Origin: Promethearchaeota archaeon
Lineage (GTDB): Archaea; Asgardarchaeota; Lokiarchaeia; Sigyniarchaeales; SOKP01
DNA length: 64,000 nucleotides
NCBI GenBank assembly: GCA_019058445.1
Contig: JAHPZA010000001.1
Location: forward strand, 128,001 to 192,000
Reading direction: 5' to 3'
Under the pieces are notes generated by a model. It ran no database searches and was not told the DNA's origin. It saw only the letters and a list, made by a program, of their open reading frames with translations. Of this stretch, positions 17,209-39,883 are shown one piece after another; within the stretch, counting starts at the first letter, position 1; every line of letters starts with the position of its first letter. Position numbers and translations under genes: made by a program.

Positions 17209-17457
17209 ATAACAAAATTTTATGCACTCTATCAATTTAAAAATCATTATATTTGAAATATTTGCATCATTAGTGAGAGATTTACTCTAGTTATATAACT
17301 TGAATGAAGATATAAATCCGAAAAAATAATATCAAGCAAATAACGAAAGACATTTTGAGATATTCACTAATAAAATTAATGATGAATTTAGAAAATTATT
17401 TAAGAAACTAAGACCTATGAACATAGGACAAAAGATTAAAGATGAGTAGATTTTTCA

Positions 17458-20400: not shown

Positions 20401-21009
20401 ATTATTAAAGAATGTCCGGGAACAATTAAGGAAATAAGAAAAAAAATAATTAGTTTAATTCCTAGCAAATATTTACCAATGGATTTTGACAAAACAACTA
20501 TTAACACTCTATTTATCAATTTTTATGAAATAGAAGCAGAAGATACCTGGGAAGATTTTAAAATTTTATTTAAATCCAAATCAATTGATTATGTAGAGTT
20601 TTATTTCAACCTCTTATTTCTAAAATTAGTGCCTATCAATAAAATTTTAGAATTATGTGAGGAAAATGTAGAAAAAAATCCTTTAATTCTTGTTAAAATT
20701 GTAGGAGAGGATATCCAATCTCAAAAAGGTCAAGATCTTGTTCGTGAAATTTGGTATAACTACTCGAATATTAGCAATCTTTCTTTTGAAATATATTCTA
20801 ATTATACTTCTGGTGTCAAAATATTCTCACCTGGTGAAAGCGCTAAAATTCAAGAATTTCAATTAAAAAGACTTGAGGAGTGGCTTGAAAAAGAAAAAAA
20901 AATGGAAAAAACTAGAGAAAAAATGACGATATTAATAAATGAATTGAAAAGATTAATCTCGAGGGATGAAATACACGCAAAACAGAATGATGAAGAAACA
21001 AAAATTTAG
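17458..21009 (+). CDS. HNH nuclease + STAND-like P-loop domain + long helical sensor region (Avs/NLR-like defence protein)
   Basis: CAFPSC...AHI...GPR...NGILLCAEHHALID HNH; GEIGVGKK degenerate Walker A; KGNP STAND-type helical motif; long alpha-helical C-terminus. Confidence 0.7.
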   Translation: MKQTERSYFSYSTKLKIAAYCNNTCAFPSCGKKVLSGRIKAEDLENGFSKGEFAHIVGVSPQGPRRSQDVSLESINDVSNGILLCAEHHALIDANPNDYPIETLRKWKRNIEDNYKNLLFISDYDSWDVDINNLIKTSEFIQYSEELNKFLNSSENLIVHVDGEIGVGKKTFVKYCFSQLPKNLQNEVIIIQSNDFDLSNFSLFNKMIKSRFLILLETSPNYLKKLVDRIKQVNPTSYKVISIGSGELVTKKINGIIKKYTLNRLDSKSSRKLISQLSKIISQNNIKYILDLTKGNPGIIASLVKYNERKYDFTDDSIISEIFENFNERIKKMGIELILVKKIILGFSIFSELGWYKGLYKTLFEKGKWSYEFEEIPNKFSKIINVDLDKIDIIITELLELKVLERKGRFLTLSLPCLSGLFIRQTQEVFLKYFKRIMDLQDPHLLQKFLKRLKQFAYEEVLISSIVKEILDTGLLSTIDCLNINFFSTILLNLAQLNNKLVADHLELLFKHKNPLELKEILINRRNLITALEHLIWYPETFKTGMDILIKLSIGENEDWANNATGLIPEKFRVYLPGTSASLDLRLNYLSEFIANSTEEHFFLIPMIFKSIFYLNTSSRLIYAEIQSFKPIPKEFVPNPKELSKYLNETFKIFKNQFENEKFEKDGLEIINNNLKLFVELNKFEEIKSIWNKIISKDRDFKIRLINFFEYRFKNDTIYPDIKEYINKLKEDFSLLDSIKEFSWKSPLDFKEEDMKSKSLEVKKVLSSLEKEEIQEILEWLMKNSGDFVIQIGILLSLDKDWIDQYEDVLESFLKLKENREFDFFLAVSYNIRIKDQERWRSILKKIEANEGLSHDYFRLLRATPILDDWVVNKIVDLAEHDFLNESDLYQFSCLENVIELDENLFKKIMRIYYNRFPNVISVKPQQWNDNLFLIKRYIEKNPNFIKRNVEDLLKILLNFECHEVEIGDKFSSLWLEIILIIIKECPGTIKEIRKKIISLIPSKYLPMDFDKTTINTLFINFYEIEAEDTWEDFKILFKSKSIDYVEFYFNLLFLKLVPINKILELCEENVEKNPLILVKIVGEDIQSQKGQDLVREIWYNYSNISNLSFEIYSNYTSGVKIFSPGESAKIQEFQLKRLEEWLEKEKKMEKTREKMTILINELKRLISRDEIHAKQNDEETKI

Positions 21010-22261
21010 CGAATTGATTCCAAAATTCGATAATTGTTATATTCCTTTTAGATCAAACCTTGAAATTAAGATAGATCAAATTCATTTTAGAAAAAAAGGA
21101 CAAGATGAATGGTCATATTTTTCTAAATTATTCAGTTATGAAGATGATTATAATCATATAGTTGAAATTAATAACGAAATTGATGAAAATCTAATAATTA
21201 TCTACTATAAATCACTTGATCCTATAAAGTTTTCGTCAGAATTTGTCCAACTTCGAGTTATTATAAATAATGAGATTTATAGATGTATGTGCTCAATAGA
21301 ATGGATAAAAATTGAAGATGATTTACTTCCAAAGATCGTAATTAATTCAAATTTAGGATTTAAAAAGGAAAGAATTACCTGCCTATGTCTAAAATTAAAC
21401 GACAATTGTTTGAAATTCCTTAAACAATTTAACCAATTAATTGAAACTCAAAATATTACAGATTTGACTGATATTCGTGGAATTAATATTAAAAATTATG
21501 ATATCGCAATTGTAAATATCAAATTCTTAGATGATATAAATTTATACTTGAGATTTCTAAAGAATATTGGACAAATATACATCTCTGATGACATTGGAAA
21601 ATTATCAGAAAATTGTCTCAATATCAACAAACACAATTCATCTTATTCCTTTCATTATCGTATATCTGAATTTTTAAAAATAAAATGTTTAAACATTGAG
21701 AAAAATGATAAAGTCGATTTTTGGGAACAAAATAAAGATGAATCCGAGAGATTTTGGCAAAAATACTTACAAAAGCATACTGATATCTTTTCCTCTGCTC
21801 TAAACTATACTATGGAATTTATCTGTGATGAAGGATCTGTAAGAGGGCAAGATATATATGGAAAGGGAGAAAAAAGAATAGATTTTCTATATAAAGGAAA
21901 TGATAATAATGCTATTCTAATCGAAATAAAAGGACCAAAAACTCAATTAATTATGAATATGGAATATCGTGAAGGAATATATCCTCCCACAACTGATTTA
22001 TCAGCTTCAGTCCTTCAGGTAATGGATTATAAGAAAATACTAATCGAAAATTATAATGAAATTAAAAAAAGATGTGATTGTGATGGTTTAAAGACAGACA
22101 TCATTAAATGTTATGTTATAATTGGAAACTTAGAAGATTTAAAAGAGGAACAAGAAAAAAGTTTTTCTTATTTTAAAGAAGTCGTAAACCCATATGTGGA
22201 GATAATCACCTTTGATGATCTTTTTGATAAATATAAAAAAAGCTATTTAATGGTCATTTAA
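20966..22261 (+). CDS. sduA: Shedu anti-phage nuclease SduA (DUF4263) with unknown N-terminal domain (start possibly TTG at 21014)
   Basis: C-terminal ERFWQKYL...IDFL...IEIKGP...YR...LSASVLQV...VIIG...IITFDDL. Confidence 0.8.
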   Translation: MKYTQNRMMKKQKFSELIPKFDNCYIPFRSNLEIKIDQIHFRKKGQDEWSYFSKLFSYEDDYNHIVEINNEIDENLIIIYYKSLDPIKFSSEFVQLRVIINNEIYRCMCSIEWIKIEDDLLPKIVINSNLGFKKERITCLCLKLNDNCLKFLKQFNQLIETQNITDLTDIRGINIKNYDIAIVNIKFLDDINLYLRFLKNIGQIYISDDIGKLSENCLNINKHNSSYSFHYRISEFLKIKCLNIEKNDKVDFWEQNKDESERFWQKYLQKHTDIFSSALNYTMEFICDEGSVRGQDIYGKGEKRIDFLYKGNDNNAILIEIKGPKTQLIMNMEYREGIYPPTTDLSASVLQVMDYKKILIENYNEIKKRCDCDGLKTDIIKCYVIIGNLEDLKEEQEKSFSYFKEVVNPYVEIITFDDLFDKYKKSYLMVI

Positions 22262-22323
22262 TTACAAATTATCTTTTTGGATTATGGAAAATATATAAAA
22301 ATGAGTTTGGAATACTTAAAAAT

Positions 22324-24222
22324 TTATTTATTGTCTTTTATGAAAGTTTGAAGATCTATAAAGAAATTGAAATTATCGCTTGTAATATTAGTTTTAAGTG
22401 TTTCTACTTCTTTATAAGTAACTGTCTCTGCTTCAGTATTATTTCTTTTCTTACAAACAAATTTCCCATCTTCCTGTTCTACAAGAATTGGTTCCCTTGT
22501 TTGCTTAATAGCAACAATCAAAATGATTTTTTCTATATCGAAATCATCTATCAATTTTATCTCTTTACATTTAATAAAATCCTTTTTTGGTTCTGTAAAT
22601 TTCCTTAATACTTTCTTAATTTGTTTAATTTTTTCCTCTAATCCATCAATTCCGACAATCTTTTTTGGATCATCATCTGTAATACCAATAATTAATAAGC
22701 CACCATCATAATTGGCAAAACTTGTTACTTGATTGCAGAATTTAATTTTAGCCCTCTTTTTTTCTGATTTGCTGGATTTTTCCCAAAAGTCAAGTGTTTG
22801 CTTAAAGTCCCATAAATCATTTTCAATGCGGTTAGGTTCTATAGCTTTTTTTATAAAAAGAATTAAAGCTTCTTCATTATATAAAAAGGTTTGTTGCAGT
22901 CTATATTTGTTAATATCTAAATCTAATTCTTCATAAATTTCTTCAAAATCTTCTTCAAGAATTTTGTTCACAATGGATTTAGTGTTTTCTTTTTGAATTA
23001 AATATACAGAGCATTCCTCTTCATTTTCGTATAAAAATTCTCTAGAATGCGTAGTTATAAAAATCTGATTAGATTTTGATTCTTGAAGGAATTTATCCCT
23101 TAACTTAATTTCTAATCCAGGATGTAAATGAAGCCCAGGTTCTTCTATACATAGTATATTATCTTGCCCAATTTCCATGATATAAGCAATAAAGTGTGCT
23201 ATGTTAAGTATACCAGCACCCATATTGTCCAAATTCAATTCTATGTTTAAATCATTTTCTTTTAAAATTAATATAGTATAATCATTTTCGATCACTTCTT
23301 GCCTTAGTATATCAATTTCAGGAATAAATTCTAATAATTGCTTATTAAGTTTTGAGTTCCAATCATGTTCATTGGTAACCAATTTCTTATATATTATAGT
23401 AACTAAATTACTTCCTACCGGATCCAGACTTAAGCGAGTGGCCCCTGAGGTCTCAGCCCTTGGATTAAATCTACGTTTATCTGGAATAATATGGATATTT
23501 TCAAAAAATTTAATTAATTCTTTAGCTATAAATGGAATAGGGGGATAATTTTCAAGATTCAAATGTTCTTCTAAAATTTGTTTTATATATCGAATTCCAC
23601 CAGTTCTTATATTTGCAAAATAATTTTTTAGAAATACTCTATCAATTGAAACATTTTGTTTTTGAATAGCTTTAGGATTATATACTGAGTTTTGAAAATT
23701 ATCATTATCAAGTCTTTTAAAATGGAACAAATCTTGATAGTTATTATCCATATGTAAAATTTGAATTCTTTCAATATATAAAGCCTTTCCAATATCGTAC
23801 TTTTTCAAAAAAATTTTAATTTTATTGAAATATTCATTTGATTTAAGCCAGTCTAAAGCGACTTTTGTGTCATTCCAATTAAATTCTTGAAATTTTGGAT
23901 CATTTTTCCTTGTATAATCAAAAACTCTATTTAAAAAATTTCGAGTGATAAGTTCCAATATAATTTTATTTCTAAACTCTGATGTTAGGGAAAAAATTAG
24001 ATTAAGTTCTAATGGTAGTGTTTCGTCTCCATCATAATATTGTTCTCTATTTACTTTTCTTTCTGAATAAGAATCTTGGAGTATCTTAAATATTTTAAAT
24101 AAATTTGATTTACCTGAACTATTTTTTCCTATTATAACATTGTAATCTTTAAAATCCTCAAATTTAGCATCTTTATAACTCAAGAAATTTTTGATTTCTA
24201 TTCCTGAAAGCTTAATATTCAA
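22324..24222 (-). CDS. ABC-type ATPase (AAA_15/OLD-like) fused to a C-terminal Schlafen AlbA_2 domain
   Basis: GKNSSGKS, MGAG signature, IEEPGLHLHP, ITTHS; C-terminal ENDLWDFKQ...SFANYDGGLLIIGITD...IVGI. Confidence 0.8.
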   Translation of the reverse strand: MNIKLSGIEIKNFLSYKDAKFEDFKDYNVIIGKNSSGKSNLFKIFKILQDSYSERKVNREQYYDGDETLPLELNLIFSLTSEFRNKIILELITRNFLNRVFDYTRKNDPKFQEFNWNDTKVALDWLKSNEYFNKIKIFLKKYDIGKALYIERIQILHMDNNYQDLFHFKRLDNDNFQNSVYNPKAIQKQNVSIDRVFLKNYFANIRTGGIRYIKQILEEHLNLENYPPIPFIAKELIKFFENIHIIPDKRRFNPRAETSGATRLSLDPVGSNLVTIIYKKLVTNEHDWNSKLNKQLLEFIPEIDILRQEVIENDYTILILKENDLNIELNLDNMGAGILNIAHFIAYIMEIGQDNILCIEEPGLHLHPGLEIKLRDKFLQESKSNQIFITTHSREFLYENEEECSVYLIQKENTKSIVNKILEEDFEEIYEELDLDINKYRLQQTFLYNEEALILFIKKAIEPNRIENDLWDFKQTLDFWEKSSKSEKKRAKIKFCNQVTSFANYDGGLLIIGITDDDPKKIVGIDGLEEKIKQIKKVLRKFTEPKKDFIKCKEIKLIDDFDIEKIILIVAIKQTREPILVEQEDGKFVCKKRNNTEAETVTYKEVETLKTNITSDNFNFFIDLQTFIKDNK

Positions 24223-24648
24223 ATCTCCTTTCCCCCTTAATAATGATTTAAGACTCTTCTGATATTCTTTAGCAAAATATAATATTTATTCTCTTTGGTA
24301 AATTAGAAATTATAGAATAATAATTTAATAATATTAATTAAAAAGTAAAAATAAAGAGAGTCTAATTATTTTTTACAATTCATTAAACACAATTTTACAA
24401 ATTTTGAAGCAGATCTTCATTCTTTTAAATCTTAATATAATTCTAAATTATTGAATTCAATATTTTCGTATATACTAGAACTATAATTTCAATTTTTATC
24501 AATACTCATGTATAGTAATCCTTAAGGTTAGTATTTAATTATGAATATAAATATAAAGCTATCAAATAGTTATAGATTACTAGTATATATTTAAATTCAC
24601 TTAATTACAAATAATTTTATATATTAATACATAAAAAAAGATTTTTTA

Positions 24649-26190
24649 ATGATAAAAATGAACGAGGCAAGCGTTATTGTACCAAAAAGTGAAATTAGTG
24701 ACGATTTCTTAATTAAGAATTACTGTAAGCTCATTAAAAAAGGGGAGATTGAATTTCTAGAGAAAATGGATAGTTTTGACATATATGATAAGAATTATGA
24801 AGAATTAAAGGATGAGTCTAACTATATAAAAATTGATACTAAGAATCTTGTTAATATTTTAAATGATCTCACTATAGAAGATAAAAAAGAAGAAGAAAAA
24901 GTAAAGATTCTGAAAAAGAAAAAAATAATATTTCAGAAACTATGGCCGAATTTTGTAAGGAGTGCTATTAAATATCTAAGAATAAAAGATACTCGAGATA
25001 AAGGTACCTTTAAATTTGATTTTGGAGTCAACAATTTAACAAAATATTTTGAAGAATTCTCAAAATTTGAAGAAATTCTTTATGGAATTGACGAATACTA
25101 TCGAGATCATTCCCTACATGTTTTTAGAGTGTATCTTTTAGGAGTATATTTAGTAAGAAAATTTTTTAAAGATTATGATCAATTGAAGATTAAAAATAAA
25201 CCTTCTATAATCGGTAAAATCTTTTCTGATGAAAAAGAAGCGATTTGGTGCGTTATAGCATTATGTCATGATTTAGGATATCCATTACAGAAATTAGATG
25301 AATTAAATAAAAAACTTGTTAAAATACTCGAATTTTTTGGTACTTCAAATTTTAATCCTTTAAGATTTAGCTTACCTCTTGAAGGAACAATCTTAGACAA
25401 ATTTATTTTAAAATTAATTTCGTCAAGAATCAATGACAACTTATTGATTCAACATCAACCTAAATTTTATGCAAAATACTCTAAGGCTTATGAAAAATTG
25501 AGCCATGGAATAATGTCTTGTATCTTATTAATGAAAAATTTAGTATATTTTAAAGAAACAGATTATGAACCTGATTTCCAAAAAGGTTTTAAATATATTA
25601 AAGAGCCTTCTACAAATAGCAACGATTTTGATGAAAGAACTTTAGAGGATGCAAGACAATATGTAATTAGAAGAGAAATACTACGATCAATTGCTTCCCA
25701 TGATAACGAAGATATTTATCATATAGAAATGAATAATTTTCCCTTTTTATTGATAATGTGTGATGAAATCCAGGAATGGAGCCGACCTGCTTCAAAAATA
25801 AGACTACTATATGCCTTAGATGAAAAAAATAGAGAGATAATTAATATCAATGCTTTTAATGAAAATATAATAGATATCTTAATAAATTTAAATTTTGATG
25901 AAAATGATTTATTAAATTATGTTGCAAAGAAATATATGAAATTTATTCGATTATTGAGAAGTGCTGTAGATTCAGATAAACGGAAATTTAATTTTATAAT
26001 GTCGATACAAAATAGGGAAGGCATAAAATACCAGTTTATTTATGAAAGTCCTAATGAATTCTATACTGATGAAGAAAAGAAAAAAATGGAAATCTCGTAT
26101 GAAGAACCAAAATGTATAAAATTTATAAATGAAAAACCAATAGAAGATTTCTCATTAAGGAATATTATTGATTTAATAAATAAAAAATGA
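24649..26190 (+). CDS. HD-superfamily metal-dependent phosphohydrolase
   Basis: RDHSLHVFRV, CHDLG, SHG, SHD and CDEIQEWSR metal-ligand motifs. Confidence 0.75.
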   Translation: MIKMNEASVIVPKSEISDDFLIKNYCKLIKKGEIEFLEKMDSFDIYDKNYEELKDESNYIKIDTKNLVNILNDLTIEDKKEEEKVKILKKKKIIFQKLWPNFVRSAIKYLRIKDTRDKGTFKFDFGVNNLTKYFEEFSKFEEILYGIDEYYRDHSLHVFRVYLLGVYLVRKFFKDYDQLKIKNKPSIIGKIFSDEKEAIWCVIALCHDLGYPLQKLDELNKKLVKILEFFGTSNFNPLRFSLPLEGTILDKFILKLISSRINDNLLIQHQPKFYAKYSKAYEKLSHGIMSCILLMKNLVYFKETDYEPDFQKGFKYIKEPSTNSNDFDERTLEDARQYVIRREILRSIASHDNEDIYHIEMNNFPFLLIMCDEIQEWSRPASKIRLLYALDEKNREIININAFNENIIDILINLNFDENDLLNYVAKKYMKFIRLLRSAVDSDKRKFNFIMSIQNREGIKYQFIYESPNEFYTDEEKKKMEISYEEPKCIKFINEKPIEDFSLRNIIDLINKK

Positions 26191-26750
26191 CAGTAAATGA
26201 TTATACTGATATAAAAACTATTGAAATTAAGAAAAGGGATTTAATATTTTCTAAAAAAACTCGTTTGTGGTGTAGATTACCATATCCAAATCATCCTTAT
26301 GGATGTCCAAATTATAATAAAAATCCATTATGTCCCCCTTTTGCCGATTACATGGATTATATTAAAAAAAAATATTCTCATTTTTATTTAATTTATGCTA
26401 TTTTTAAATTAAAAAGTCAAAGAGAAAGAATGCTTTCAATCCATCCAAATTGGTCAATAAAAAAAGCTAATTGTTTGTTATATTGGCAGGGTTCTGTAAA
26501 AAAAGTCTTAAAAAACTATATTCAAAGGATTATACTAAAAAATAAAAATAGAAAAACCTATATTTTAGCATGTGGTTCTGGATTTAAATTTAGTAGTATT
26601 CATCAAAATAAAGTCTATAGTATGGAAGCTGTAGGAATAAATGTATTAAAAACTTTAGATAATGTGGGAATAGAATACGAACTTAAACCTAAGAATAAAG
26701 TATTACTAGTTACACTATTATGTTCTCAAGAGTACCTTTTATTTTTTTAA
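26187..26750 (+). CDS. DUF2284-like predicted metal-binding protein
   Basis: WC...GCPNYNKNPLCPP and SMEAVGINV motifs; ATGA overlap with the HD gene. Confidence 0.7.
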   Translation: MTVNDYTDIKTIEIKKRDLIFSKKTRLWCRLPYPNHPYGCPNYNKNPLCPPFADYMDYIKKKYSHFYLIYAIFKLKSQRERMLSIHPNWSIKKANCLLYWQGSVKKVLKNYIQRIILKNKNRKTYILACGSGFKFSSIHQNKVYSMEAVGINVLKTLDNVGIEYELKPKNKVLLVTLLCSQEYLLFF

Positions 26751-27771
26751 ATTCTTCAGGTATATAATCTTTAGTTAAATCTATTTGTTTAATGTTATTG
26801 CATACTAATTTTTGAATTGGACAAATTTCATTACATATTTTTCTTTCTAAACAATATCCACATTTTAGATTTTCTTTAAAATGCTGTAATTCTATATCTA
26901 ATAACCTATTAGAAATAACTTTTCGAAGCGAATTTTTATCATTCAGTTTCACGAAGCAATTTGAAATATTTTTAAAAGCAGTACAAGGAAATAATTTAAG
27001 ATCAGATGTAATCATAAATTTATTTTTTCCAGCTTCACACTTAAAACAAGAATTACTAAGGTTAGAAAATGCCGATCCTATTTCGACTTTAGAGGAAGGA
27101 TAATTTAATTTCACATTATTTAAAATGATAGCTAGATCTTCTTTGCTAAATACTAATTTCTCATGATTTTTTAAAGCCCTACCATGTAATATAAGGCGAA
27201 GTATCTTGACATGTTTAATATTTAGCTCATTTATTAAATATTCTATTGTATCTTCAAGGTATTTAATATTTAAACAATTAGGGATGATATGAACTTCAGT
27301 ATTGATATTTAAATCTATACATGATTTAATTGAAGTTATAGTATTTTCAAAACCAAATGTGGTTTTTGTTAATTTAGCAAAATTTTCTTTATCAATGGTT
27401 TGAAAATTATATCTTATTGTCAAATTAGGATGATTTTTATATCTCATTAAGATATTTTTAGGAATAGGCAAATACTCCCTATCTTTATAAATACATCCAC
27501 AAGAGTAAATTTCCAGCAAAAAATCACAATTTAGAATATAATCAATAAATTCTATAATGTTTGGATGAAGAAATGGTTCTCCTCCTGATAATTGGATAAT
27601 ATCAAGACCAAGTTTTTTAGCATCTTGAATAAGTTCGATAAATTTCTTTTTTTCTATATATTTCTTCTTATAGATGGTTGAATCACTAGAACAAAAAATA
27701 CAATTAAAAGGACATTTGTTAGTTATTTCAATCAACAATTCTTTTTTCTTTTTCAATTTTGCTTTCCTCAA
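26710..27771 (-). CDS. Radical SAM/SPASM domain protein
   Basis: CPFNCIFC, SGGEPF, and SPASM cysteines CEAG...FPC...CGYCLERKICNEICP. Confidence 0.9.
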   Translation of the reverse strand: MRKAKLKKKKELLIEITNKCPFNCIFCSSDSTIYKKKYIEKKKFIELIQDAKKLGLDIIQLSGGEPFLHPNIIEFIDYILNCDFLLEIYSCGCIYKDREYLPIPKNILMRYKNHPNLTIRYNFQTIDKENFAKLTKTTFGFENTITSIKSCIDLNINTEVHIIPNCLNIKYLEDTIEYLINELNIKHVKILRLILHGRALKNHEKLVFSKEDLAIILNNVKLNYPSSKVEIGSAFSNLSNSCFKCEAGKNKFMITSDLKLFPCTAFKNISNCFVKLNDKNSLRKVISNRLLDIELQHFKENLKCGYCLERKICNEICPIQKLVCNNIKQIDLTKDYIPEEFKKIKGTLENIIV

Positions 27772-28065
27772 CGATTCAATTCTAATATTGACTTAGATAC
27801 TTTTAATCTTTTTCTATATAAAAAAATAAAAATATCTTGGTTTTTTCTCATCATCTCCTAAACTTGTTTAACTCTATATTATGCTTAAATATTAGAAATA
27901 TTTTAAATCTTTTAGCTTTTCTCATTTAAAATATATTTCTTAAAAATATTTAAAATTATTGGCAATGAAATTATTCGAAATTTAATAAAATCTCATTTAA
28001 TTAATAAGATTTTGATTTCAATTTAACTTATAATAAAAAAATAGATTTAACCGACAAATTTATAT

Positions 28066-28093
28066 TATTCTCTTTTCTTAAGAATTGAGAATA
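28066..28093. promoter_or_regulatory. 28 bp near-perfect palindrome, putative operator of the adjacent wHTH gene
   Basis: TATTCTC-TT-TTCTTAAGAA-TT-GAGAATA directly after a TATA-like TTTATA, ~35 bp upstream of 28128. Confidence 0.45.
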
Positions 28094-28127
28094 TTTAAAA
28101 ATGCTTGTTTATAATTTAATTATGTAG

Positions 28128-28454
28128 ATGATTGCCCTTGAAAAAGAGATAATTATTATAAATTTTTTAAATGAGAAAGCTATAAATTTATTATATATTC
28201 TAGCTAAAAAATATCCAATAACTAGCGTTAATTTGAGGAATAAGGTTATTAAAAATGAAATAATGTCTATAAGTTCTTACTATAGGTATCTGGATTTCCT
28301 TTTGAAACATAAACTGATAAAAAAAGAAAAATATAGAAAGAAGACAGGGGGTTATATTTATAATATAAGTAATTTTGGTAAGTATTTCCTAGAATTAATT
28401 TTAAAATCAAACATTCCTTTTTATAATAATCTAAATCATGATCTAAACTCATAA
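28128..28454 (+). CDS. Winged helix-turn-helix transcriptional regulator
   Basis: MSISSYYRYLDFLLKHKLI...YNISNFG wHTH pattern; divergent from the radical SAM gene. Confidence 0.7.
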   Translation: MIALEKEIIIINFLNEKAINLLYILAKKYPITSVNLRNKVIKNEIMSISSYYRYLDFLLKHKLIKKEKYRKKTGGYIYNISNFGKYFLELILKSNIPFYNNLNHDLNS

Positions 28455-28498
28455 ACTTATAGAATAGCGGATTTTTATTTAAAAAATTTAAAGTGTTT

Positions 28499-28940
28499 AA
28501 TTCCTCAATCTTCTGATAATTAGGCTTACTATACAAATTCAAGTTATTTCAGATATGATGCTGAGATTTTACATTCAGAAAGGATTAAAAAACAAGGAGA
28601 TTACCATTCTATTATAAGTGGTTGAGTAATTATTCATAAAAGCTTAGGCGAGCAAAAATCAGACATACAAGGATTATGAGAATTAACTAAAAATATTTGC
28701 CATAATAATAACACAGCATATTATGCCTACACTACAGATTTCACTTATCACCCTTATTGAAGAAGAATCTTTCGAGGGGACAGTTTTACCTTTTAAGAAT
28801 GTGGTGCTCAAGATGCCAGAATTTACTCCAGAATTACTGGCTATTATAATGAAGTAAATAAATATAATGAGGGAAATAGAGCAGGATGGGAAGCCTGTAA
28901 AAGAGATTATATCAACGTATTACAGAGATTAAAAAAATAA
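28499..28940 (+). pseudogene. nrdD: Displaced, decayed 3' fragment of nrdD
   Basis: Frame from 28500 reads IPQSSDN*AYYTNSSYFRYDAE...QGDYH...YSRITGYYNEVNKYN...; collinear with the nrdD C-terminus; 5 internal stops, no frameshift. Confidence 0.93.
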
Positions 28941-28959
28941 GAATCATATATTTTCTTCT

Positions 28960-31164
28960 CTAATTTTTAATATAGATTTGTCCTATTCCTGATGTAAAGA
29001 TTTCATAGAATGGAACTGTTAAATCATAAATATTATTATTTTCATTATTAAATTCTATAGATTTTACTTTAGTGAAAGTATTTTTAGCAAATTTCATCCA
29101 TAACTTCTCAACAACAGGAGTATTATATTTCTTTTTTATAAGAAAACTCAATGTATCTAATAATTTTCCTTCAGATATATTCATTGTACTATTCTTTTGA
29201 GCACATCTCGCTGCGATATATGGAATTTTTCCTTTTTCAGATAACATTCTAAGAGATATAGCATAATTCTCTTTTAATTCTACATTCATTTTTTTCATCC
29301 ATGGATTTAAATCGATGACTGGTTCTATATCCCTCCCAAAATGTCCAATTTCTGGAATAGATGGAATAAACTTCCTTAATATAGATAGATTTCTTTTTCC
29401 TTTTATTTCTAAATGATAAGCATTATACCAACTAGGATGTTCTACATTATCAAATTCTCGTTTCCTAATATAAGATGAAATCCCTAAGCGTTTTAATAAA
29501 AAACTCAAACCAAAAACTAATTTGCGTGAAGATGTGTAAAAACTCACTAAAACATCTCTTCGTGGTGAGCCTTCACGTGTATATACTACTTCAGATCCGT
29601 CTCCTTCTAAATAAGCAGCGATAAAACCTTTCACACATTCAATGGGAGCATTATATAGAAATGAAGGAATTTCCTTAAACGGTGCTTTTTCAAGTTTTAA
29701 TCCTAATCCCGTTGAAAACATAGATTTAATTAGAATGGAATTACTATTGACGCTATATACAGTGTTATAATCCGCTTTATCATGTGTAGCAATATAAGGT
29801 GTATATCCAAAATTCCTTTCTATAAGAAATGCTACTTTTTCCATCTCAGTTTTATTATTTCCACAAGTGAACGTAATATGTTTCATAGAACCTTCGGAGC
29901 AGTAATGCCCTAAGATATATCCAACCTCGAAATTTTTCTCAACAAATCTAAAGGCTTTTGTTAATGCATTTTTAACATACTCAATGCCTTTCTCCACAAT
30001 AATTTCTCCACAATTACTAAAGTCTAAGGGGGAATCGTCTTCATTAACATCGATGACTCGAGGCATTAGAATTGGAGTTCCTTCTTTAACGTTTTCTGCT
30101 GTAATTTGGATTATATTAAGATTTTCATCAACAGAAAGTAGCTTATGTTGTTTTGATAACGATAATATCCCATGCTTCAATGTTAAATTTAATGAAAAAT
30201 CTCTATACTTTTTTTTAATTCCTTCAATGGGGATTTTTTTTAATTCAAAATTCTCGTCCAATCCAAAGATATAAGAGTTTTTATAATTTTCTATTTCTTT
30301 AATTTCTATTAGATTATATGAATTTGTATTTAAATCGAACAATAGAACGAGCTCGTTTTGCTGCATTTTAGAAAAAAGATTCTCTTCAATGGGGGTTCGT
30401 TCCTTCTCATACACATCATTAATTCGCTGAAGTTTATCTTCTTGGATAATTTCTTCATCAAAGAATACTTGATTATTTATTTCTTTTTCTTTAATATTCA
30501 CACTCGTTTCTAATCCAAAAAATTGGATTAAATCTTTTCGAATTACTTTTTCGAGGTTAAATAATCCCTCCTCAGTATCAATTTGACTCATTATTTTAAA
30601 TATTATTTCTATTATCCAACACAAGTAGACAAAAAAAGCCTTGCGGTATTTCTTGTTTTTTTTAATTTTCCTTTGGTATATTTTTAGTTCTGAGAGGAAT
30701 CCACTGTAGTTAGCATTTTCGAGATATTTCAAAATATTTAATATTGGTTTTTTAGTTATAATTGGAGTCAAATGAGCTTCAATTCTTTTAATTAGTTCAA
30801 TGGTTAGTTCCATTTGTGAAATCGGCGTGTTTACTTCTCTCTCAAATTTTTTTAATTTAACATAACTCATTCGAGCAATAAATAGAAGATAAGTATCCTT
30901 AAATCGTTGTGAAAATTCTGGATCGTAAATAATAAGCTCTAAGGCACTATTCAACTTATCATTATTATTTTTTTTATAAATTAATTGAACTTTATCAATA
31001 GTTTCAATCGAATAATTCTTAAAGTCAATTTTTTTGCCACATTCTGAGCAGAATATGAATTTTAAATCAATATTAGCAATATTTAAAATTGTATTCACTG
31101 TAATTAACATGCCACATTCTGGACAGTAAATATGTGTTTGTTTAAGTTTGTCTTTGCTTTTCAT
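28960..31164 (-). CDS. Zn-ribbon protein fused to an intein-derived Hint + LAGLIDADG homing endonuclease (no C-extein)
   Basis: CPECG/CSECG; intein-like blocks SKQH, AENVKEGTPILMPR, LGHYCSEGS, FIAAYLEGDGS, YDLTV; ends IYIKN-stop. Confidence 0.8.
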   Translation of the reverse strand: MKSKDKLKQTHIYCPECGMLITVNTILNIANIDLKFIFCSECGKKIDFKNYSIETIDKVQLIYKKNNNDKLNSALELIIYDPEFSQRFKDTYLLFIARMSYVKLKKFEREVNTPISQMELTIELIKRIEAHLTPIITKKPILNILKYLENANYSGFLSELKIYQRKIKKNKKYRKAFFVYLCWIIEIIFKIMSQIDTEEGLFNLEKVIRKDLIQFFGLETSVNIKEKEINNQVFFDEEIIQEDKLQRINDVYEKERTPIEENLFSKMQQNELVLLFDLNTNSYNLIEIKEIENYKNSYIFGLDENFELKKIPIEGIKKKYRDFSLNLTLKHGILSLSKQHKLLSVDENLNIIQITAENVKEGTPILMPRVIDVNEDDSPLDFSNCGEIIVEKGIEYVKNALTKAFRFVEKNFEVGYILGHYCSEGSMKHITFTCGNNKTEMEKVAFLIERNFGYTPYIATHDKADYNTVYSVNSNSILIKSMFSTGLGLKLEKAPFKEIPSFLYNAPIECVKGFIAAYLEGDGSEVVYTREGSPRRDVLVSFYTSSRKLVFGLSFLLKRLGISSYIRKREFDNVEHPSWYNAYHLEIKGKRNLSILRKFIPSIPEIGHFGRDIEPVIDLNPWMKKMNVELKENYAISLRMLSEKGKIPYIAARCAQKNSTMNISEGKLLDTLSFLIKKKYNTPVVEKLWMKFAKNTFTKVKSIEFNNENNNIYDLTVPFYEIFTSGIGQIYIKN

Positions 31165-31339
31165 ACTAATGAAATAAATTACTTATATTTAAAACAAAAA
31201 AAAGTTTTAAAATTGATTTCAATATGAGATAAAGCACGTTGGTATTAATAAAAAATTCAGAGAGTCATCAAATTTTTAGAGTTATATTTGCTCCCTAATA
31301 TAAAGATTTAATTGAATCTGTAACACTTTTGATGATATA

Positions 31340-32086
31340 ATGCGAATTGGCGGAATAATTGATATTTCTACAAAAGATATTCCAAATAAAGCATGCATGG
31401 TTATCTTTACTAATGGGTGTAATTTTAATTGCGAATTTTGTCATAACAAACATTTATTACAAAATAATCGCGGTAAAATTATAAAAGTAGAAGAGTTAAT
31501 GAAACTAATAAATAATAACCTACTAGTTAATAGTTTAAGTATCACAGGGGGCGAACCGACGCTTCAGGAGGATTTAGTAGAGTTATGTAGAGAAATCACT
31601 AAGTTAGGGAAATATCTAAGTATAGATACTAACGGTTCTAGACCTGAAATCATTCAAAAAGTTATTCCATATATTAATAGAATTGCTTTAGATATAAAAG
31701 CACCGTTAAAGCAACATCAATTAGAGAGAGTTGCTAGAAAAAGTATAGACCCTACGTTAATTACTCAGACATTTCTTATGCTAAATACCAGTAAGACTAT
31801 TGATTTTGAAATTAGGACCACTTATGCTGAAAACTTATTGACACCAGGGGATATTCATGAGATAATTTTCTTTCTTAAGGAGCATAATTTTAGAGGCAAT
31901 TATGTCTTACAACAATATAACTATTCTGAGGGGGTGGGTAAAGAGTTTAGAAATAAGTTTCATAAGCCGTCGCATCTTTCTTTAGTCAATATTCTTGGTT
32001 CTTATAAAAATCGCAATGTACCTTTTGAAATTTATTTAAGAGATGATATTGTTGGGTATTGCATGCTTAAAGAAATATTTAATTAA
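31340..32086 (+). CDS. nrdG: Anaerobic ribonucleotide reductase activating radical SAM protein
   Basis: FTNGCNFNCEFCHN, ITGGEPTLQ, IDTNGS, LDIKAP, EIRTT; near nrdD. Confidence 0.9.
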   Translation: MRIGGIIDISTKDIPNKACMVIFTNGCNFNCEFCHNKHLLQNNRGKIIKVEELMKLINNNLLVNSLSITGGEPTLQEDLVELCREITKLGKYLSIDTNGSRPEIIQKVIPYINRIALDIKAPLKQHQLERVARKSIDPTLITQTFLMLNTSKTIDFEIRTTYAENLLTPGDIHEIIFFLKEHNFRGNYVLQQYNYSEGVGKEFRNKFHKPSHLSLVNILGSYKNRNVPFEIYLRDDIVGYCMLKEIFN

Positions 32087-32187
32087 ATTGACTAAGCTAA
32101 AATGCATTTAAAAGATAACGATTAGATCGGTATTATGAATCCCTTTTTGTATTTTTAATTTAAATATTTTTAAGATATATTGTTATT

Positions 32188-32505
32188 ATGAGTGAAACAA
32201 AATCATTAGCATCAATTCAAGAGAAAATTGATAAGTTTATAGAGAATCATGGGGGATATTGGCCTCCTCTTTCCATGCTTAGTGCGTTAATGGAAGAGAT
32301 CGGAGAATTAGCACGTGAAATAAATCATTTAGAAGGTTTTAAACCAAAAAAAACTACAGAAACGCAAATTGATATAGGGGAAGAACTTGGGGATATTCTA
32401 TTTGCAATTATATGTTTAGCAAATTTCTACAATATCGATTTACATGAAAAAATAAATGAAATTATTGACAAATACCGAAATAGAGATTCTACACGGTTTA
32501 TTTAA
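32188..32505 (+). CDS. MazG-like nucleotide pyrophosphohydrolase
   Basis: EEIGELARE...EELGDILF motifs. Confidence 0.9.
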   Translation: MSETKSLASIQEKIDKFIENHGGYWPPLSMLSALMEEIGELAREINHLEGFKPKKTTETQIDIGEELGDILFAIICLANFYNIDLHEKINEIIDKYRNRDSTRFI

Positions 32506-32640
32506 GAGGAGAGAGGTAATTAAATCTTTCTTTTTATTCAATTAGGGAAGAATAGATTATAATATTTTAATTCAATAGATAATTCTAACTTTTAATCAAT
32601 TAGAAATAGATAAACGGAAATATTCACATATAATAGAGAA

Positions 32641-33822
32641 ATGCTAAGAGAAGGCTTAAAGAAAAGTGAGATCATAAGATTGTTGGAAAAAAAACTATCT
32701 TTGGATTATTCTTATGAATCAGGATATATTTTAGGATCAATGTGCTCTGAGCCGATTGATTTTGGAAAAGAATTATATGTCAAATATCTCTCTAAAAATT
32801 TGGGAGATCCTGGCCTATTTCAAGGAACAGCAGCCTTGGAAAAGGAATTGATTTCTGAGATTGGAATGCTTTTTGGTGGAAAAGATATTATTGGATCGAT
32901 AACTACTGGAGGAACAGAAGCAAATATAATGGCTATGCGAATAGCCAAAAAACTTCGACCTGACATTGAGAATCCTGAGTTTATAGTACCCCGTTCTGCT
33001 CACGTATCTTTTGATAAAGGGGAGGATATAATGTGTGGAGGTATAAAGCTTCGAAAGGCGAACTTGGATAAGAATTTTAAATTAGACATTCATCATTTTG
33101 AATCTCTTATAAATAAGAACACTTGTGGGGTGTTAGGAATAGCGGGAACAACATCATTAGGGATTGTTGATCCTATAAAAGAAATAGGAAGAATTATTGA
33201 AGGAAAAGATATTTTTTTTCATGTTGATGCTGCATTTGGAGGTTTTGTTCTCCCTTTTCTAAGTGAATTAGGTTATCAAGTGCCTCCTTGGGATTTTGGT
33301 GTAAAACAAGTAAATTCTATAACAGCAGACCCCCATAAAATGGGTCTTGGACCGATACCAACAGGGGGGTTTTTTTTAAGAGATTCTTCTGTTATGAATA
33401 GGGTCGGTTTTGATATCCCTTATTTAGCAGGAGGTAATTTCAAACATTTCCATCTTGTTGGAACTAGACTTGGAGGGCAGGTAATTGCGTTTTGGGCAAT
33501 TCTTAAGTATTTAGGAATAGAGGGTTTTGTTAAAATTGTTAAGGATTGTATGGAGAATACATTTTATTTAGTAAAATTAATATCTGAGATTAAAGGAATT
33601 AAACTTGCGGCTACTCCTGAAATGAATATTTTGGGAATTACCACTGAAAGTGGAAATAAAATAAATGAAATTGATGAGGAACTTCGAAAACGAAATTGGA
33701 TGGTTGGAAAATTCATTGATTTTAATTTAATCAGAGTAGTCATCATGCCCCATGTAAATCAAAACCATTTATTAAAATTTGCTAATGAATTGGAGGATAT
33801 TACAAAAAACTTAAAAATTTAA
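32641..33822 (+). CDS. mfnA: PLP-dependent tyrosine/aspartate decarboxylase
   Basis: ILGSMC, NLGDPGLF, TTGGTEAN, HVDAAFGG, ADPHK. Confidence 0.9.
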   Translation: MLREGLKKSEIIRLLEKKLSLDYSYESGYILGSMCSEPIDFGKELYVKYLSKNLGDPGLFQGTAALEKELISEIGMLFGGKDIIGSITTGGTEANIMAMRIAKKLRPDIENPEFIVPRSAHVSFDKGEDIMCGGIKLRKANLDKNFKLDIHHFESLINKNTCGVLGIAGTTSLGIVDPIKEIGRIIEGKDIFFHVDAAFGGFVLPFLSELGYQVPPWDFGVKQVNSITADPHKMGLGPIPTGGFFLRDSSVMNRVGFDIPYLAGGNFKHFHLVGTRLGGQVIAFWAILKYLGIEGFVKIVKDCMENTFYLVKLISEIKGIKLAATPEMNILGITTESGNKINEIDEELRKRNWMVGKFIDFNLIRVVIMPHVNQNHLLKFANELEDITKNLKI

Positions 33823-35344: not shown

Positions 35345-37135
35345 TTATTGTAACTTAGCACCACATTTGTTACAAAATGCATAATCTGAAGACAGCATCG
35401 CCCCGCAATATTGACAGATTAGAATGTCTTTTCGGGTGCTTCGAGTGCTTGAAGGTTCAGATTTCTCCGGAATTGAGGTTTCTGGAGAAGTATCGAATAT
35501 TTCTGGTAGAGGTGCACTACTTGGAGCTTGAGCTGCGCCTTTATCAATATCTGCTACGTTAGGAATTATCCTAAGACTTGAGGTTTGTTTTTCATCAGAT
35601 GGTGCTTTATCTCCAAATGGGATAAATGAGGTACCGTGAGTGGAAGCTGGCTGTTCTGTTTTTTGACTTAAAGTTTGAAATAAGGTTGGTGTATCAGATT
35701 CCCTTTTTTCAGGTTCAGCTGTTTGAAATGGCACGATTGTCTCCTGTTTTTCTTGAGGAGCTGCTTGAAATGCCATAAGAGGTTTAGTTTCTGCTTGAAT
35801 TTCCTGTAGTGCTTCTTTTTTTTCTTTTTTCCCTACTTTTTGCATTTCTTCTTTAAGTTTTGCAGCTTTCTCTCTTTTTTTTTTAAGTTTCTTCTCCTTT
35901 TCTTCTTTTTTCTTCTGTTTCTCTAATTTTTTTCGTTCTTTCTTAGATATTATAGTTTCAGGCATATAATCTACAAGGAGTTCAGATACGGGTTCTGGTG
36001 TTTTAAATTCCTCTGGACCGGGTGCTGGAACTGGAATACTTGATGTGAAAGGAATTGCTTTAGGTTTATAAGCAGGAGGTTCTGATGATACTGATACTTC
36101 AGATTTCATACCAAATTGAGTAGGGATTTCTTCTTTTTGAACTTCCTCAGATAATATTTGTTCTGGTGTTTTAAATTCAAATTCCATTGTATCTTTTGCC
36201 GTGGGTTCTAATGAGGTTGTGGGTATAGTTTCTCTTATTGGTACCGGTTCTGGAACAGGTGGTGTTGTAAAATCAATCTCTGGCTCAGGCTCAAAGGTTT
36301 TTGCCGGTTCTGGAACAGGTGGTGCGGCAAAATCAATCTCTGGCTCGGGTTCAAAGGTTTTTGCCGGTTCTGGAACAGGTGGTGCGGCAAAATCAATCTC
36401 TGGCTCGGGTTCAAAGGTTCTTGCTGGTTCTGGAACAGACGGTGCAATAAATTGAGTATCTGGTTTGGGTTCAAGCACAGGGGTGGAAACCTTAGCATCA
36501 GGTTGAATTCCCGAGATGAGTTCTGCAGGTGCAGTAGATGGTGCGGAGAAAGCTTGACCTGGACTATATACAGTACCTTCAGAAATTAGTTGATCTGGAA
36601 TTCCTGATCCCACCATTAAACATGCTAGGATATAGAAGCAATCTCCAACCCCTTCTCCAGTTTTAGCTGAAGTTTCCATATAATATAGATTAAATTTTTG
36701 AGTAAAACTATTAATTTCCTCATTTGATAAGGATCGTTCATCAATCAAATCGCTTTTGTTGCCAACAAGAAGTAACGGTATTTCTGTTTTGATATTTGCC
36801 CTTACTTCCTCAATCCATTGTGGTAAATGCTCAAAACTTTCATATGACGTCAAATCAAAGATTAACAAACCACCCAATGAGCCTCTGTAATACATCGGTC
36901 TAATTGAACTAAATCGCTCTTGACCACCGGTATCCCAGATTTGTAATTTAACCTTTATAGGTCCTTCTTCTTCGGTATCTATTGATATTGTCTTTACGTG
37001 AAAATCTACGCCAATTGTCATTTTATAATCTTCCGTGAAAAACCCTTTGCTAAACCGAATTGTTAAAGCAGTTTTTCCAACTCCACCATCTCCAACGACA
37101 ATACATTTAAATAGATAATCGTATTCATCAGCCAT
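35345..37135 (-). CDS. Rab-like small GTPase with Pro/Glu-rich repeat linker, Lys/Glu-rich helix and C-terminal Zn ribbon
   Basis: GDGGVGKT, TIGVDF, WDTGGQE, NKSD, ETSAK; C-terminal CQYCG...FCNKCG. Confidence 0.9.
   Translation of the reverse strand: MADEYDYLFKCIVVGDGGVGKTALTIRFSKGFFTEDYKMTIGVDFHVKTISIDTEEEGPIKVKLQIWDTGGQERFSSIRPMYYRGSLGGLLIFDLTSYESFEHLPQWIEEVRANIKTEIPLLLVGNKSDLIDERSLSNEEINSFTQKFNLYYMETSAKTGEGVGDCFYILACLMVGSGIPDQLISEGTVYSPGQAFSAPSTAPAELISGIQPDAKVSTPVLEPKPDTQFIAPSVPEPARTFEPEPEIDFAAPPVPEPAKTFEPEPEIDFAAPPVPEPAKTFEPEPEIDFTTPPVPEPVPIRETIPTTSLEPTAKDTMEFEFKTPEQILSEEVQKEEIPTQFGMKSEVSVSSEPPAYKPKAIPFTSSIPVPAPGPEEFKTPEPVSELLVDYMPETIISKKERKKLEKQKKKEEKEKKLKKKREKAAKLKEEMQKVGKKEKKEALQEIQAETKPLMAFQAAPQEKQETIVPFQTAEPEKRESDTPTLFQTLSQKTEQPASTHGTSFIPFGDKAPSDEKQTSSLRIIPNVADIDKGAAQAPSSAPLPEIFDTSPETSIPEKSEPSSTRSTRKDILICQYCGAMLSSDYAFCNKCGAKLQ
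36244..36475. repeat. Coding tandem repeat, 60 bp unit, ~3.9 copies (20 aa unit FEPEPEIDFAAPPVPEPAKT)
   Basis: Near-identical consecutive 60-mers in lines 36241, 36301 and 36361, degenerate copy in line 36421. Confidence 0.95.
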
Positions 37136-38938: not shown

Positions 38939-39883
38939 TCAATTAAAAGTAGATTTTAATTGGTCATGAAATTTATTTAATTCGACTTTCATCTCATTGA
39001 TGCTTTTAAATGGGACGGAAATTCCTAAATAAAAGATATTTCTTCCATTTTGTAATTGTATCTCATATTTTTTAACATATTCTATATTTTCCTTGACAAA
39101 TGACAATCTTTCATCTATTGCTACTTGGTTATCAGTTAGTCTTTGAAAAAATTCCAAATCCTCGTTAATCTTATTGCTTATTAGTTCTTCGAAATCTCTT
39201 GAATCCATAGATTCATTATAATAATCTGAAATGATTAAACCGGTATCAGTATATAAAATTGCATGATTACAATGAAAATCTTGCACAATATTTCTTAATT
39301 TATCATTAATAGTTACCAAATTTAGCAATTTATTTAGTGAATAGGAAATCGCTTTTGACAAGGATGATATATCATAGATAGAAGTCTTAAAAAATTTAAA
39401 TTTCATATCTTTATTTTGACTTAATATGAGATTTTGAATCATGTCGATTCTATCAATGAATTCTTCATTGGTTTTATATTTTGGATCATATTTATTAAAG
39501 CATATAAGAATTTCATTAGAATAATCCATATTTCTATAAATATCTAAAAGTTCATGCAGATATCTTACTGATGCTTCAAATTTTAGCTCATCCTGGATAT
39601 CGATAAGGTAATATAAGTAATTGGTTTCTGTGAAATAAATGGGATTATTGACATAAATCTTTCGATATTTAGCTTGTCCTCCCATATCCCACAAATTTAT
39701 AGTCCAGTTGTTTAAAAAATCAAAAGAATTATAATCGATTTTTATCGTTGGTTTTAAATTTCTCACTTTTTCGTAAAAGTTATATTTTTTTCTTAAGGCT
39801 ATTAAAGCACTCGTTTTTCCTGCATTATCTAGGCCACTTATTACTATTTTTATGTCTTCCATTTTTACCGAATTATCTGCCAT
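38939..39883 (-). CDS. Arf/Rag-like small GTPase with C-terminal roadblock/longin-like domain
   Basis: GLDNAGKT, WDMGGQ, NKYD, TSIYD; C-terminal AILYTDTGLIISD. Confidence 0.85.
   Translation of the reverse strand: MADNSVKMEDIKIVISGLDNAGKTSALIALRKKYNFYEKVRNLKPTIKIDYNSFDFLNNWTINLWDMGGQAKYRKIYVNNPIYFTETNYLYYLIDIQDELKFEASVRYLHELLDIYRNMDYSNEILICFNKYDPKYKTNEEFIDRIDMIQNLILSQNKDMKFKFFKTSIYDISSLSKAISYSLNKLLNLVTINDKLRNIVQDFHCNHAILYTDTGLIISDYYNESMDSRDFEELISNKINEDLEFFQRLTDNQVAIDERLSFVKENIEYVKKYEIQLQNGRNIFYLGISVPFKSINEMKVELNKFHDQLKSTFN

Follow-up and report, generated by a model that had tools for sequence, protein, structure and literature searches.

An extein-less, intein-like LAGLIDADG protein of a Lokiarchaeial genome is probably a free-standing homing endonuclease linked to nrdD

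Here we analyse a gene at 28960..31164 on the minus strand of a 64,000-nucleotide stretch of archaeal DNA (the window; G000:C1:128001-192000, where G000 is the source genome). Its protein, P0001, has the layout of a complete large intein with an inserted LAGLIDADG endonuclease domain, preceded by a zinc-ribbon domain and followed directly by a stop codon. We will argue that P0001 is probably the nuclease of a site-specific selfish element, that is, an intein turned into a free-standing LAGLIDADG homing endonuclease, with DNA cleavage as its predicted activity. This reading is based on the presence or absence of the gene at an exact genomic site, on its linkage to the anaerobic ribonucleotide reductase gene nrdD, on the retention of the catalytic acids together with the decay of the splicing residues, and on purifying selection. 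Below, G### denotes related genomes (metagenome-assembled genomes, MAGs), L### retrieved loci and P#### database homologues; the homologues and the related MAGs are labelled Promethearchaeota.

P0001 is encoded by one open reading frame (ORF) of 734 amino acids (aa) without internal stop, and the stop codon (28960-28962) comes directly after Asn734. All of its parts lie on the minus strand. The N-terminal domain consists of a C4 zinc ribbon (residues 11-47, 31024..31134), with C14 and C17 in the motif CPECG and C39 and C42 in CSECG, which is near-invariant across the family of this domain, and a helical bundle (residues 65-216, 30517..30972) with a predicted local distance difference test score (pLDDT) above 90 when folded alone. 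A probably disordered linker (residues 222-265, 30370..30501) connects it to the extein-less Hint-LAGLIDADG module. The module starts with the Hint N-lobe (residues 266-405, 29950..30369), where the block A-like KMQQNELV (residues 266-273) has Lys266 at position 1 and where the block B motif SKQH sits within GILSLSKQHKLL. Next is the LAGLIDADG endonuclease domain (residues 406-612, 29329..29949), in which both catalytic acids are present, E424 (codon 29893-29895) in LGHYCSEGS and D522 (codon 29599-29601) in FIAAYLEGDGS. A helical subdomain (residues 613-692) and the Hint C-lobe (residues 693-734), the latter with blocks F (YDLTV) and G, complete the protein at 28963..29328 and end it in IYIKN. 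Pfam assigns Intein_splicing to residues 280-724 (42.3 bits, cutoff 35.8) and LAGLIDADG_3 to residues 509-598 (48.7 bits), and PADLOC gave no match to P0001. The ORF layout and every motif quoted in the original prediction, which had been made on the DNA letters, were thus recovered: the zinc ribbon, the intein blocks, the LAGLIDADG motifs and the terminal KN followed by a stop.

An AlphaFold2 (AF2) model of P0001, with 36 homologues in the alignment and a mean pLDDT of 79, shows in order the zinc ribbon, the helical bundle, a linker of low confidence (residues 222-269) and a complete large-intein fold (residues 266-734). Using VIA-align, residues 268/269-734 were found to match the Thermococcus litoralis VMA intein (TliVMA) with Z scores of 31-32, PI-TkoII with 30.7, PhoVMA with 27.9, PI-PfuI with 22.9 and PI-SceI with about 17, and Foldseek agrees on the intein fold. 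On the sequence level, the only matches among solved structures are the TliVMA entries 7qss and 7qsu, and PI-SceI gave no match to P0001. The LAGLIDADG core, which has its two motifs, each with a catalytic acid, in the alpha-beta-beta-alpha-beta-beta-alpha fold, also matches I-DmoI, I-OnuI and WhiA (WhiA with Z 13), and E424 and D522 fall in the alignment on the catalytic Asp residues of TliVMA. Since residue 269 of the model is placed opposite intein residue 4, and residue 734 opposite residue 454, the last one of PI-SceI and PI-PfuI (454 aa each), Lys266 falls at intein position 1 and Asn734 at the position of the terminal Asn. The superposition thereby bears out the block assignment that had been made from the letters.

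With the canonical large inteins (TliVMA 7qss, PI-TkoII 2cw7, PI-PfuI 1dq3, PI-SceI 1vde), P0001 shares the two-lobed Hint fold with blocks A, B, F and G and the inserted LAGLIDADG domain with both catalytic acids, and the likeness spans intein residue 1 to the last residue. Unlike them, the P0001 family has no C-extein, no nucleophile at position 1 and no penultimate His, and the block B His is not conserved. In P0001 itself, Lys266 stands where Cys, Ser or Thr is expected, and instead of His-Asn followed by Cys, Ser or Thr at +1 there is Lys, Asn and the stop. The protein is also not an in-frame insertion in a conserved host protein, its N-terminal part being a variable accessory region; its gene seems to move to places next to the target gene, not into it.

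The same decay is seen across the family, of which ca 20 proteins sharing the Hint-LAGLIDADG module were found in a search of 5.8 billion proteins and more in 161 genomes of the class. Position 1 is K, E or T in ca 25 homologues, with no conserved nucleophile within four residues on either side, the block B His column holds H, Q, D or N, the Asp of block F is variable, and a penultimate His is never seen in the alignment. None of the homologues has a C-extein: they end in IYIKN, IFVN, IYIN or IFVK before the stop, and a few carry tails of 0-50 unrelated residues. A sequencing error masking a C-extein can be excluded, because ca 20 homologues from independent assemblies stop at, or a few residues past, the same point, and because an independent Logan contig from the source sequencing run is identical to the window at 15831..33500; the claim that no C-extein exists therefore survives this check. 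With neither a C-side extein nor a splicing nucleophile, P0001 is unable to splice.

The nuclease site is preserved. E424 is invariant in the family and D522 nearly so, the second acid being lost in one homologue, P0016. The ratio of nonsynonymous to synonymous substitution (dN/dS) is 0.20 between G000 and locus L031 and 0.26 between G060 and G056, values that signify purifying selection. Whatever P0001 is maintained for depends on its nuclease site but not on its splicing site. The module has a patchy distribution, occurring in ca 12 of the 161 class genomes. A metagenome scan for it returned one locus only and a genome-contig scan only three MAGs that had already been found, and no relatives were found in viral contigs (IMG/VR). 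The match in G089 contains a TAA within the tblastn alignment, upstream of the called start.

We now turn our attention to the genomic site. Colinearity of the congener G052 with the window extends to 17223 and resumes at 31346, with ca 30 bp between the stop of nrdD and the start of nrdG, and in G053 the two genes are likewise adjacent (the gap is ca 30-50 bp in G052/G053). This synteny means that 17224-31345 is inserted DNA and that the ancestral order was nrdD-nrdG. In a second genus, g11, the empty site is represented by nrdD followed directly by MazG in 11 of 20 sampled genomes. Filled sites, besides that of G000, are found in L031, a metagenome contig with nrdD, a 279-aa ORF and a convergent nuclease gene whose product is 75% identical to P0001 and near-identical to P0002; in G060 and G056 of genus g11, where the convergent nuclease gene overlaps the stop region of nrdD by 8 and 4 bp, respectively; and in G089, where nrdD fragments (codons 571-712 and about 658-714) come after the nuclease gene and precede MazG. 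No nrdG lies near the nrdD-linked nuclease in genus g11. At two loci of this genus (L032 11291..14116 on the minus strand and L034 4744..7524 on the plus strand), the nuclease gene is preceded by a gene for a 926-941-aa protein with AAA-type ATPase motifs, which overlaps the nuclease start by 8 bp and is probably co-transcribed with it.

In a maximum-likelihood tree of the module, the nrdD-linked clade (18 rows) has a support of 94/91 and a second clade (7 rows) one of 100/100. Five members of the first clade have a known genomic context, and each of them is located at nrdD, in two genera and independently of the N-terminus. The sister clade, 33-36% identical to P0001 and with a large unrelated N-terminal region, always adjoins leuS, as seen at loci L036 (G064:C146), L037 (G108:C54), L038 (G129:C316), L040 (G114:C68), L039 (G046:C185) and L041 (G045:C306). 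The nuclease gene abuts the 3' end of leuS in G114 and G129 and lies just upstream of leuS in G046 and G045; in G064, one inserted ORF and a 30-codon leuS 3' fragment separate leuS from the nuclease gene, and in G108 a leuS fragment lies alongside it. Site fidelity hence tracks the phylogeny of the Hint-LAGLIDADG module, which is the behaviour of a homing endonuclease. The linkage to nrd genes, for which a comparison of homologues with and without the N-terminal domain had been proposed, holds in both genera whatever the N-terminus.

The gene had been described as lying between nrdD and nrdG. This is correct on the nrdG side: the NrdG2 activase gene (31340..32086, plus strand; TIGR02495, 152 bits) is divergent from the nuclease gene across a 175-bp spacer. 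On the other side, however, the neighbour is a dead 3' copy of nrdD (28499..28940, plus strand), convergent with the nuclease gene at a distance of ca 20 bp, and the intact nrdD, the presumed target, is located 11.7 kb upstream (15058..17208, plus strand). The dead copy comprises ca 138 last codons, from about codon 575 to the end, and is 74% identical on the nucleotide level to 16782..17195 without indels; it has in-frame stops at 28521, 28623, 28677, 28758 and 28794 and has lost the zinc-binding Cys residues. Between the intact nrdD and this displaced fragment there is an 11.3-kb defence island of 25% GC (17224..28498), absent from G052, which encodes HNH-STAND, Shedu SduA, an OLD-like ATPase fused to AlbA_2, and an HD/DUF2284/radical-SAM module. 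The last of these (24649..27771) consists of an HD-like 513-aa protein, DUF2284 and a radical SAM/SPASM gene, and PADLOC gave only weak viperin-like matches for the radical SAM component. The sequencing runs listed for this DNA all belong to one study, possibly that of the source, and include no RNA run; none of their Logan contigs joins nrdD to nrdG, and the joints in the list rest on sides of 21-34 letters, most of them under 30. We have also considered selenocysteine as an explanation of an in-frame TGA in the nrdD of congeners and rejected it, as the TGA precedes the likely start, Met11.

The dead fragment of G000 differs from the live tail at 28, 22 and 65 sites in codon positions 1, 2 and 3, respectively, and it is closest to g1-type alleles (72-77%). 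The excess at third positions indicates that it was once the tail of a different functional nrdD allele, before it decayed. A displaced fragment in G076 is 88% identical to the live tail of G089 and 77% to the tail of its own genome, which implies that tails have been exchanged between lineages. Target 3' fragments are found beside the nuclease genes of G000 and G089 (nrdD) and of G064 and G108 (leuS), and nrdD fragments in general start at scattered points (codons about 563-575, 592 and 630-658). Synonymous sites of the nuclease gene differ by 0.48 between G000 and L031, those of the adjacent nrdD by 0.70. The nrdD genes of G060 and G056 are 97.8% identical over codons 30-560 and 91.4% over codons 576-712, with differences denser toward the 3' end. 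Judged from these sequence comparisons, the histories of the nuclease gene and of nrdD disagree with vertical descent.

Other features of the nrdD genes in these genomes can be mentioned here. Stacks of two nrdD 3' fragments occur between nrdD and MazG at L046 (G076:C6 4700-13300), L035 (G089:C23) and L047 (G082:C15), with DUF285, SUKH/DUF6891, ferredoxin-flavodoxin and winged helix-turn-helix genes as cargo between the fragments. Many nrdD frames of the family are 1186-1687 aa long (e.g. G151:C1, G113:C211, G059:C83, G082:C15, G032:C45 and G035:C21), which indicates one or two genuine inteins. An origin of P0001 from such an intein was considered and found to be unsupported, as the nrdD inteins of the relatives are located near aa 160-185 (G082) and are not close kin.

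A mechanism for the element can be proposed on the basis of these results. The enzyme would cut nrdD alleles, or the junction downstream of nrdD, that lack the nuclease gene, and repair off the filled locus would copy the nuclease gene plus the adjoining nrdD tail. As in the WHO elements of yeast, each new arrival would bring its own 3' end of nrdD in place of the resident one, so that the old tail and older cargo end up farther downstream. The Hint lobes may act as a DNA-binding surface, as they do in PI-SceI, and the N-terminal zinc-ribbon/helical domain would be an exchangeable accessory, providing extra DNA contacts or control, and not the determinant of the nrdD site. In the window, P0001 may drive the exchange of nrdD 3' ends and the capture of the 11-kb defence island. 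A more general proposal is that Asgard archaea have WHO-type homing elements, derived independently from archaeal inteins, which home to essential genes (nrdD, leuS) at their 3' ends, each carrying a replacement tail, and which thereby open an integrase-free entry for cargo such as the 11-kb defence island; this we put forward tentatively, as a possibility that falls somewhat short of probable.

It is important to point out that several observations weigh against this picture. Fragments of the nrdD 3' end are also found in the nuclease-free genomes G076, G082 and G120, where they lie beside unrelated cargo (DUF285 and SUKH-like proteins, a methyltransferase, sugar enzymes), and the tails may be duplicated by a process independent of P0001, through recombination alone or with the help of other nucleases. 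A displaced nrdD fragment is absent from G060 and G056. The flanks of G000 and G052, when compared, show no gradient of co-conversion, and a comparison of 3 linked with 27 unlinked alleles revealed no clear resistant patch in the nrdD tails, the most that it gave being a weak excess around codons 657-668 of G060/G056. Furthermore, the nuclease gene of G000 lies beyond the displaced fragment, and the defence island, the newest insertion in this genome, has no recognisable homing nuclease.

Three other explanations of P0001 were weighed. As an alternative to a free-standing homing endonuclease tied to nrdD, the original prediction had offered a domesticated protein, and we consider it unlikely that P0001 is such an intein derivative with a host function, making an HO-like break or acting as a WhiA-like regulator, e.g. 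of nrdG/nrdD. An intact ORF under purifying selection, the divergent arrangement with nrdG across the short spacer, the resemblance of the LAGLIDADG core to WhiA and the attached zinc ribbon of a DNA-binding type would all be compatible with such a role. The closest congeners, however, have an intact empty site and no gene, and its presence in so few of the class genomes fits poorly with domestication; a WhiA-type protein would be universal in the lineage at a fixed locus, which the P0001 family is not. WhiA is not known to have catalytic activity, whereas the catalytic acids are retained here. In addition, the clade members of genus g11 sit behind nrdD with no nrdG in the vicinity, and the N-terminal domain is swapped or missing among orthologues. 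Of the two options, the homing endonuclease is accordingly the better supported one, by the site polymorphism and the linkage.

It is quite improbable that P0001 is an inactive relic of a true intein, left after truncation or rearrangement of a host gene, with the linkage to nrdD reflecting a general insertion hotspot. The ca 25 intact homologues with dN/dS of 0.2-0.26 and the conservation of E424 and D522 speak against decay of the whole protein, although the splicing residues are degenerate, P0016 lacks the second acid and the G089 match has its upstream TAA. The region downstream of nrdD does gather many unrelated insertions and fragments without a nuclease, but two clades that are each faithful to a different conserved gene form a pattern that is not expected of a passive relic. 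Another option considered was an autoprocessing Hint protein, of the Hedgehog or bacterial intein-like (BIL) kind, that releases or activates the N-terminal zinc-ribbon domain. Its architecture, with N-terminal cargo, a C-terminal Hint domain and no C-extein, would be that of P0001, Hedgehog Hint domains are among the structural matches to the model (Z 14), and P0001 has the His of block B and the Asp of block F. However, both of these residues vary across the homologues, there is no Cys or Ser at position 1 and no nucleophile common to the family, and the N-terminal part that would be processed is unrelated or nearly absent (ca 55 aa) in close homologues, which makes this scenario extremely unlikely.

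The N-terminal domain itself (zinc ribbon and helical bundle, ca 220 aa) belongs to a narrow family, with residues 1-265 retrieving 57 cluster representatives among 1.84 billion proteins. It is a Lokiarchaeial module that is nearly always N-terminal in proteins of 600-1200 aa and is also joined to HNH_3, GIY-YIG, Hint-less LAGLIDADG and other C-termini; the recognisable C-termini are mostly nucleases, with LAGLIDADG_3 in 8 of 46 members. In P0017, an ExDGxxH-type motif was spotted by eye in the C-terminus. Pfam and NCBIfam gave nothing beyond weak zinc-ribbon matches for the domain, Foldseek gave nothing at E<0.1, the best VIA-align Z score of 6.7 is at the noise level for helical bundles, and scores in the ESM Atlas were 0.77 or less. 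A TFIIB-like reading of the domain was rejected as unsupported, its basis being a TFIIB repeat in only 1 of 46 family members. A paralogue in the source genome (G000:C6:924883-927024; L042 8883..11024), 49% identical in this domain, is fused to HNH_3 and flanked by a pair of M28 peptidase genes with a mutual identity of 42%.

Within the nrdD-linked clade, the N-termini are of several kinds. The 265 aa with the zinc ribbon are found in genus g1, P0008, P0010 and P0012 have a different Cys/His-rich domain of ca 340 aa, and G089, P0006 and P0013 have only ca 55 residues. G060 and G056 have ca 430 and 245 acidic low-complexity residues, respectively, which are 54% identical to each other, compared to 86% on the amino acid level for the core. 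These differences show that the N-terminal domain is an exchangeable accessory that does not set the genomic site. The leuS clade has a zinc ribbon of the CxxC…CxxC type as an insertion inside the endonuclease domain, and zinc modules have been gained repeatedly in this nuclease family.

Elsewhere in the window, two small GTPases typical of Asgard signature proteins are encoded on the minus strand, a Rab/Ras-like protein (35345..37135), whose long repeat tail is rich in Pro and Glu and which has a zinc ribbon at its C-terminus, and an Arf-like protein (38939..39883), both of which fit the taxonomic placement.

If such elements did arise a second time, and independently, in archaea, freeing an intein from its host protein would be a repeatable evolutionary path to a new kind of homing element, and the archaeal family would offer a prokaryotic system for testing the reuse of Hint domains in DNA recognition. 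It would also supply new LAGLIDADG nucleases with long sites and natural targets in nrdD and leuS, and suggest how gene islands, defence islands among them, could grow behind essential genes of Asgard archaea in an integrase-free manner.

Among known systems, the T4-like phages provide a precedent for free-standing endonucleases at ribonucleotide reductase genes. In T4, mobC is located between nrdG and nrdD and mobE between nrdB and nrdA (PMC2988022), as the original prediction had correctly stated. The T4-like enzymes (mobC, mobE, SegH) resemble P0001 in being encoded by a free-standing gene in a spacer by anaerobic ribonucleotide reductase genes, and a further likeness to the P0001 family would be intronless homing with co-conversion of the flanks (PMC2988022). 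They are, on the other hand, phage-borne HNH or GIY-YIG enzymes without Hint, whereas P0001 is cellular and archaeal. In the mobile ORFs of fungal mitochondria (Allomyces atp6 type), the endonuclease gene brings along its own copy of the target 3' end, and the end that was resident before becomes a pseudogene downstream; these are GIY-YIG or LAGLIDADG ORFs of organelle genomes and have no Hint domain.

Closer counterparts are the WHO elements of yeast, extein-less intein-like LAGLIDADG nucleases with a zinc finger that are encoded downstream of FBA1 and cut it allele-specifically (PMC7282813). Each homing event swaps the 3' end of FBA1 and displaces the previous end, which results in clusters of nuclease genes and of FBA1 fragments of ca 400 bp (PMC7282813). 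According to the paper that described them, intein-zinc finger fusions other than WHO and HO are not known from any organism (Coughlan et al. 2020, PMC7282813), and WHO elements are still treated as a yeast phenomenon (Osborne et al. 2026, preprint 10.64898/2026.08.13.744650). Full-text literature searches, whose coverage was incomplete, returned no description of a prokaryotic extein-less intein nuclease. The family described here is apparently an independently evolved archaeal counterpart of WHO/HO, the WHO elements being otherwise known only from a few yeast genera as a 'third category' of homing element. An independent origin is favoured by the modelled fold, for which the Z scores are higher with the archaeal inteins (23-32) than with PI-SceI (about 17), the protein that represented the yeast side in this comparison.

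The yeast and archaeal systems have in common a LAGLIDADG protein that is intein-like but extein-less and unable to splice and that is linked to a zinc-binding domain, a gene position just downstream of an essential metabolic gene with polymorphic locus content, interspersed 3' fragments of the target of ca 400 bp, some of them with stops, and a target whose 3' part evolves faster than its 5' part. The displaced fragments are seen at nrdD in G000 and G089 and at leuS in G064 and G108, but not in G060 and G056. The zinc module of the archaeal family is N-terminal (internal in the leuS clade) rather than C-terminal, a ribbon and not a GATA-like finger as in WHO/HO, and dispensable among orthologues, not being universal in the clade. 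Unlike WHO/HO, the archaeal proteins often keep much of block G including the terminal Asn, and the system as a whole differs from that of yeast in its archaeal host, in its targets nrdD and leuS, in a cargo that includes defence genes, and in a cleavage activity that is predicted.

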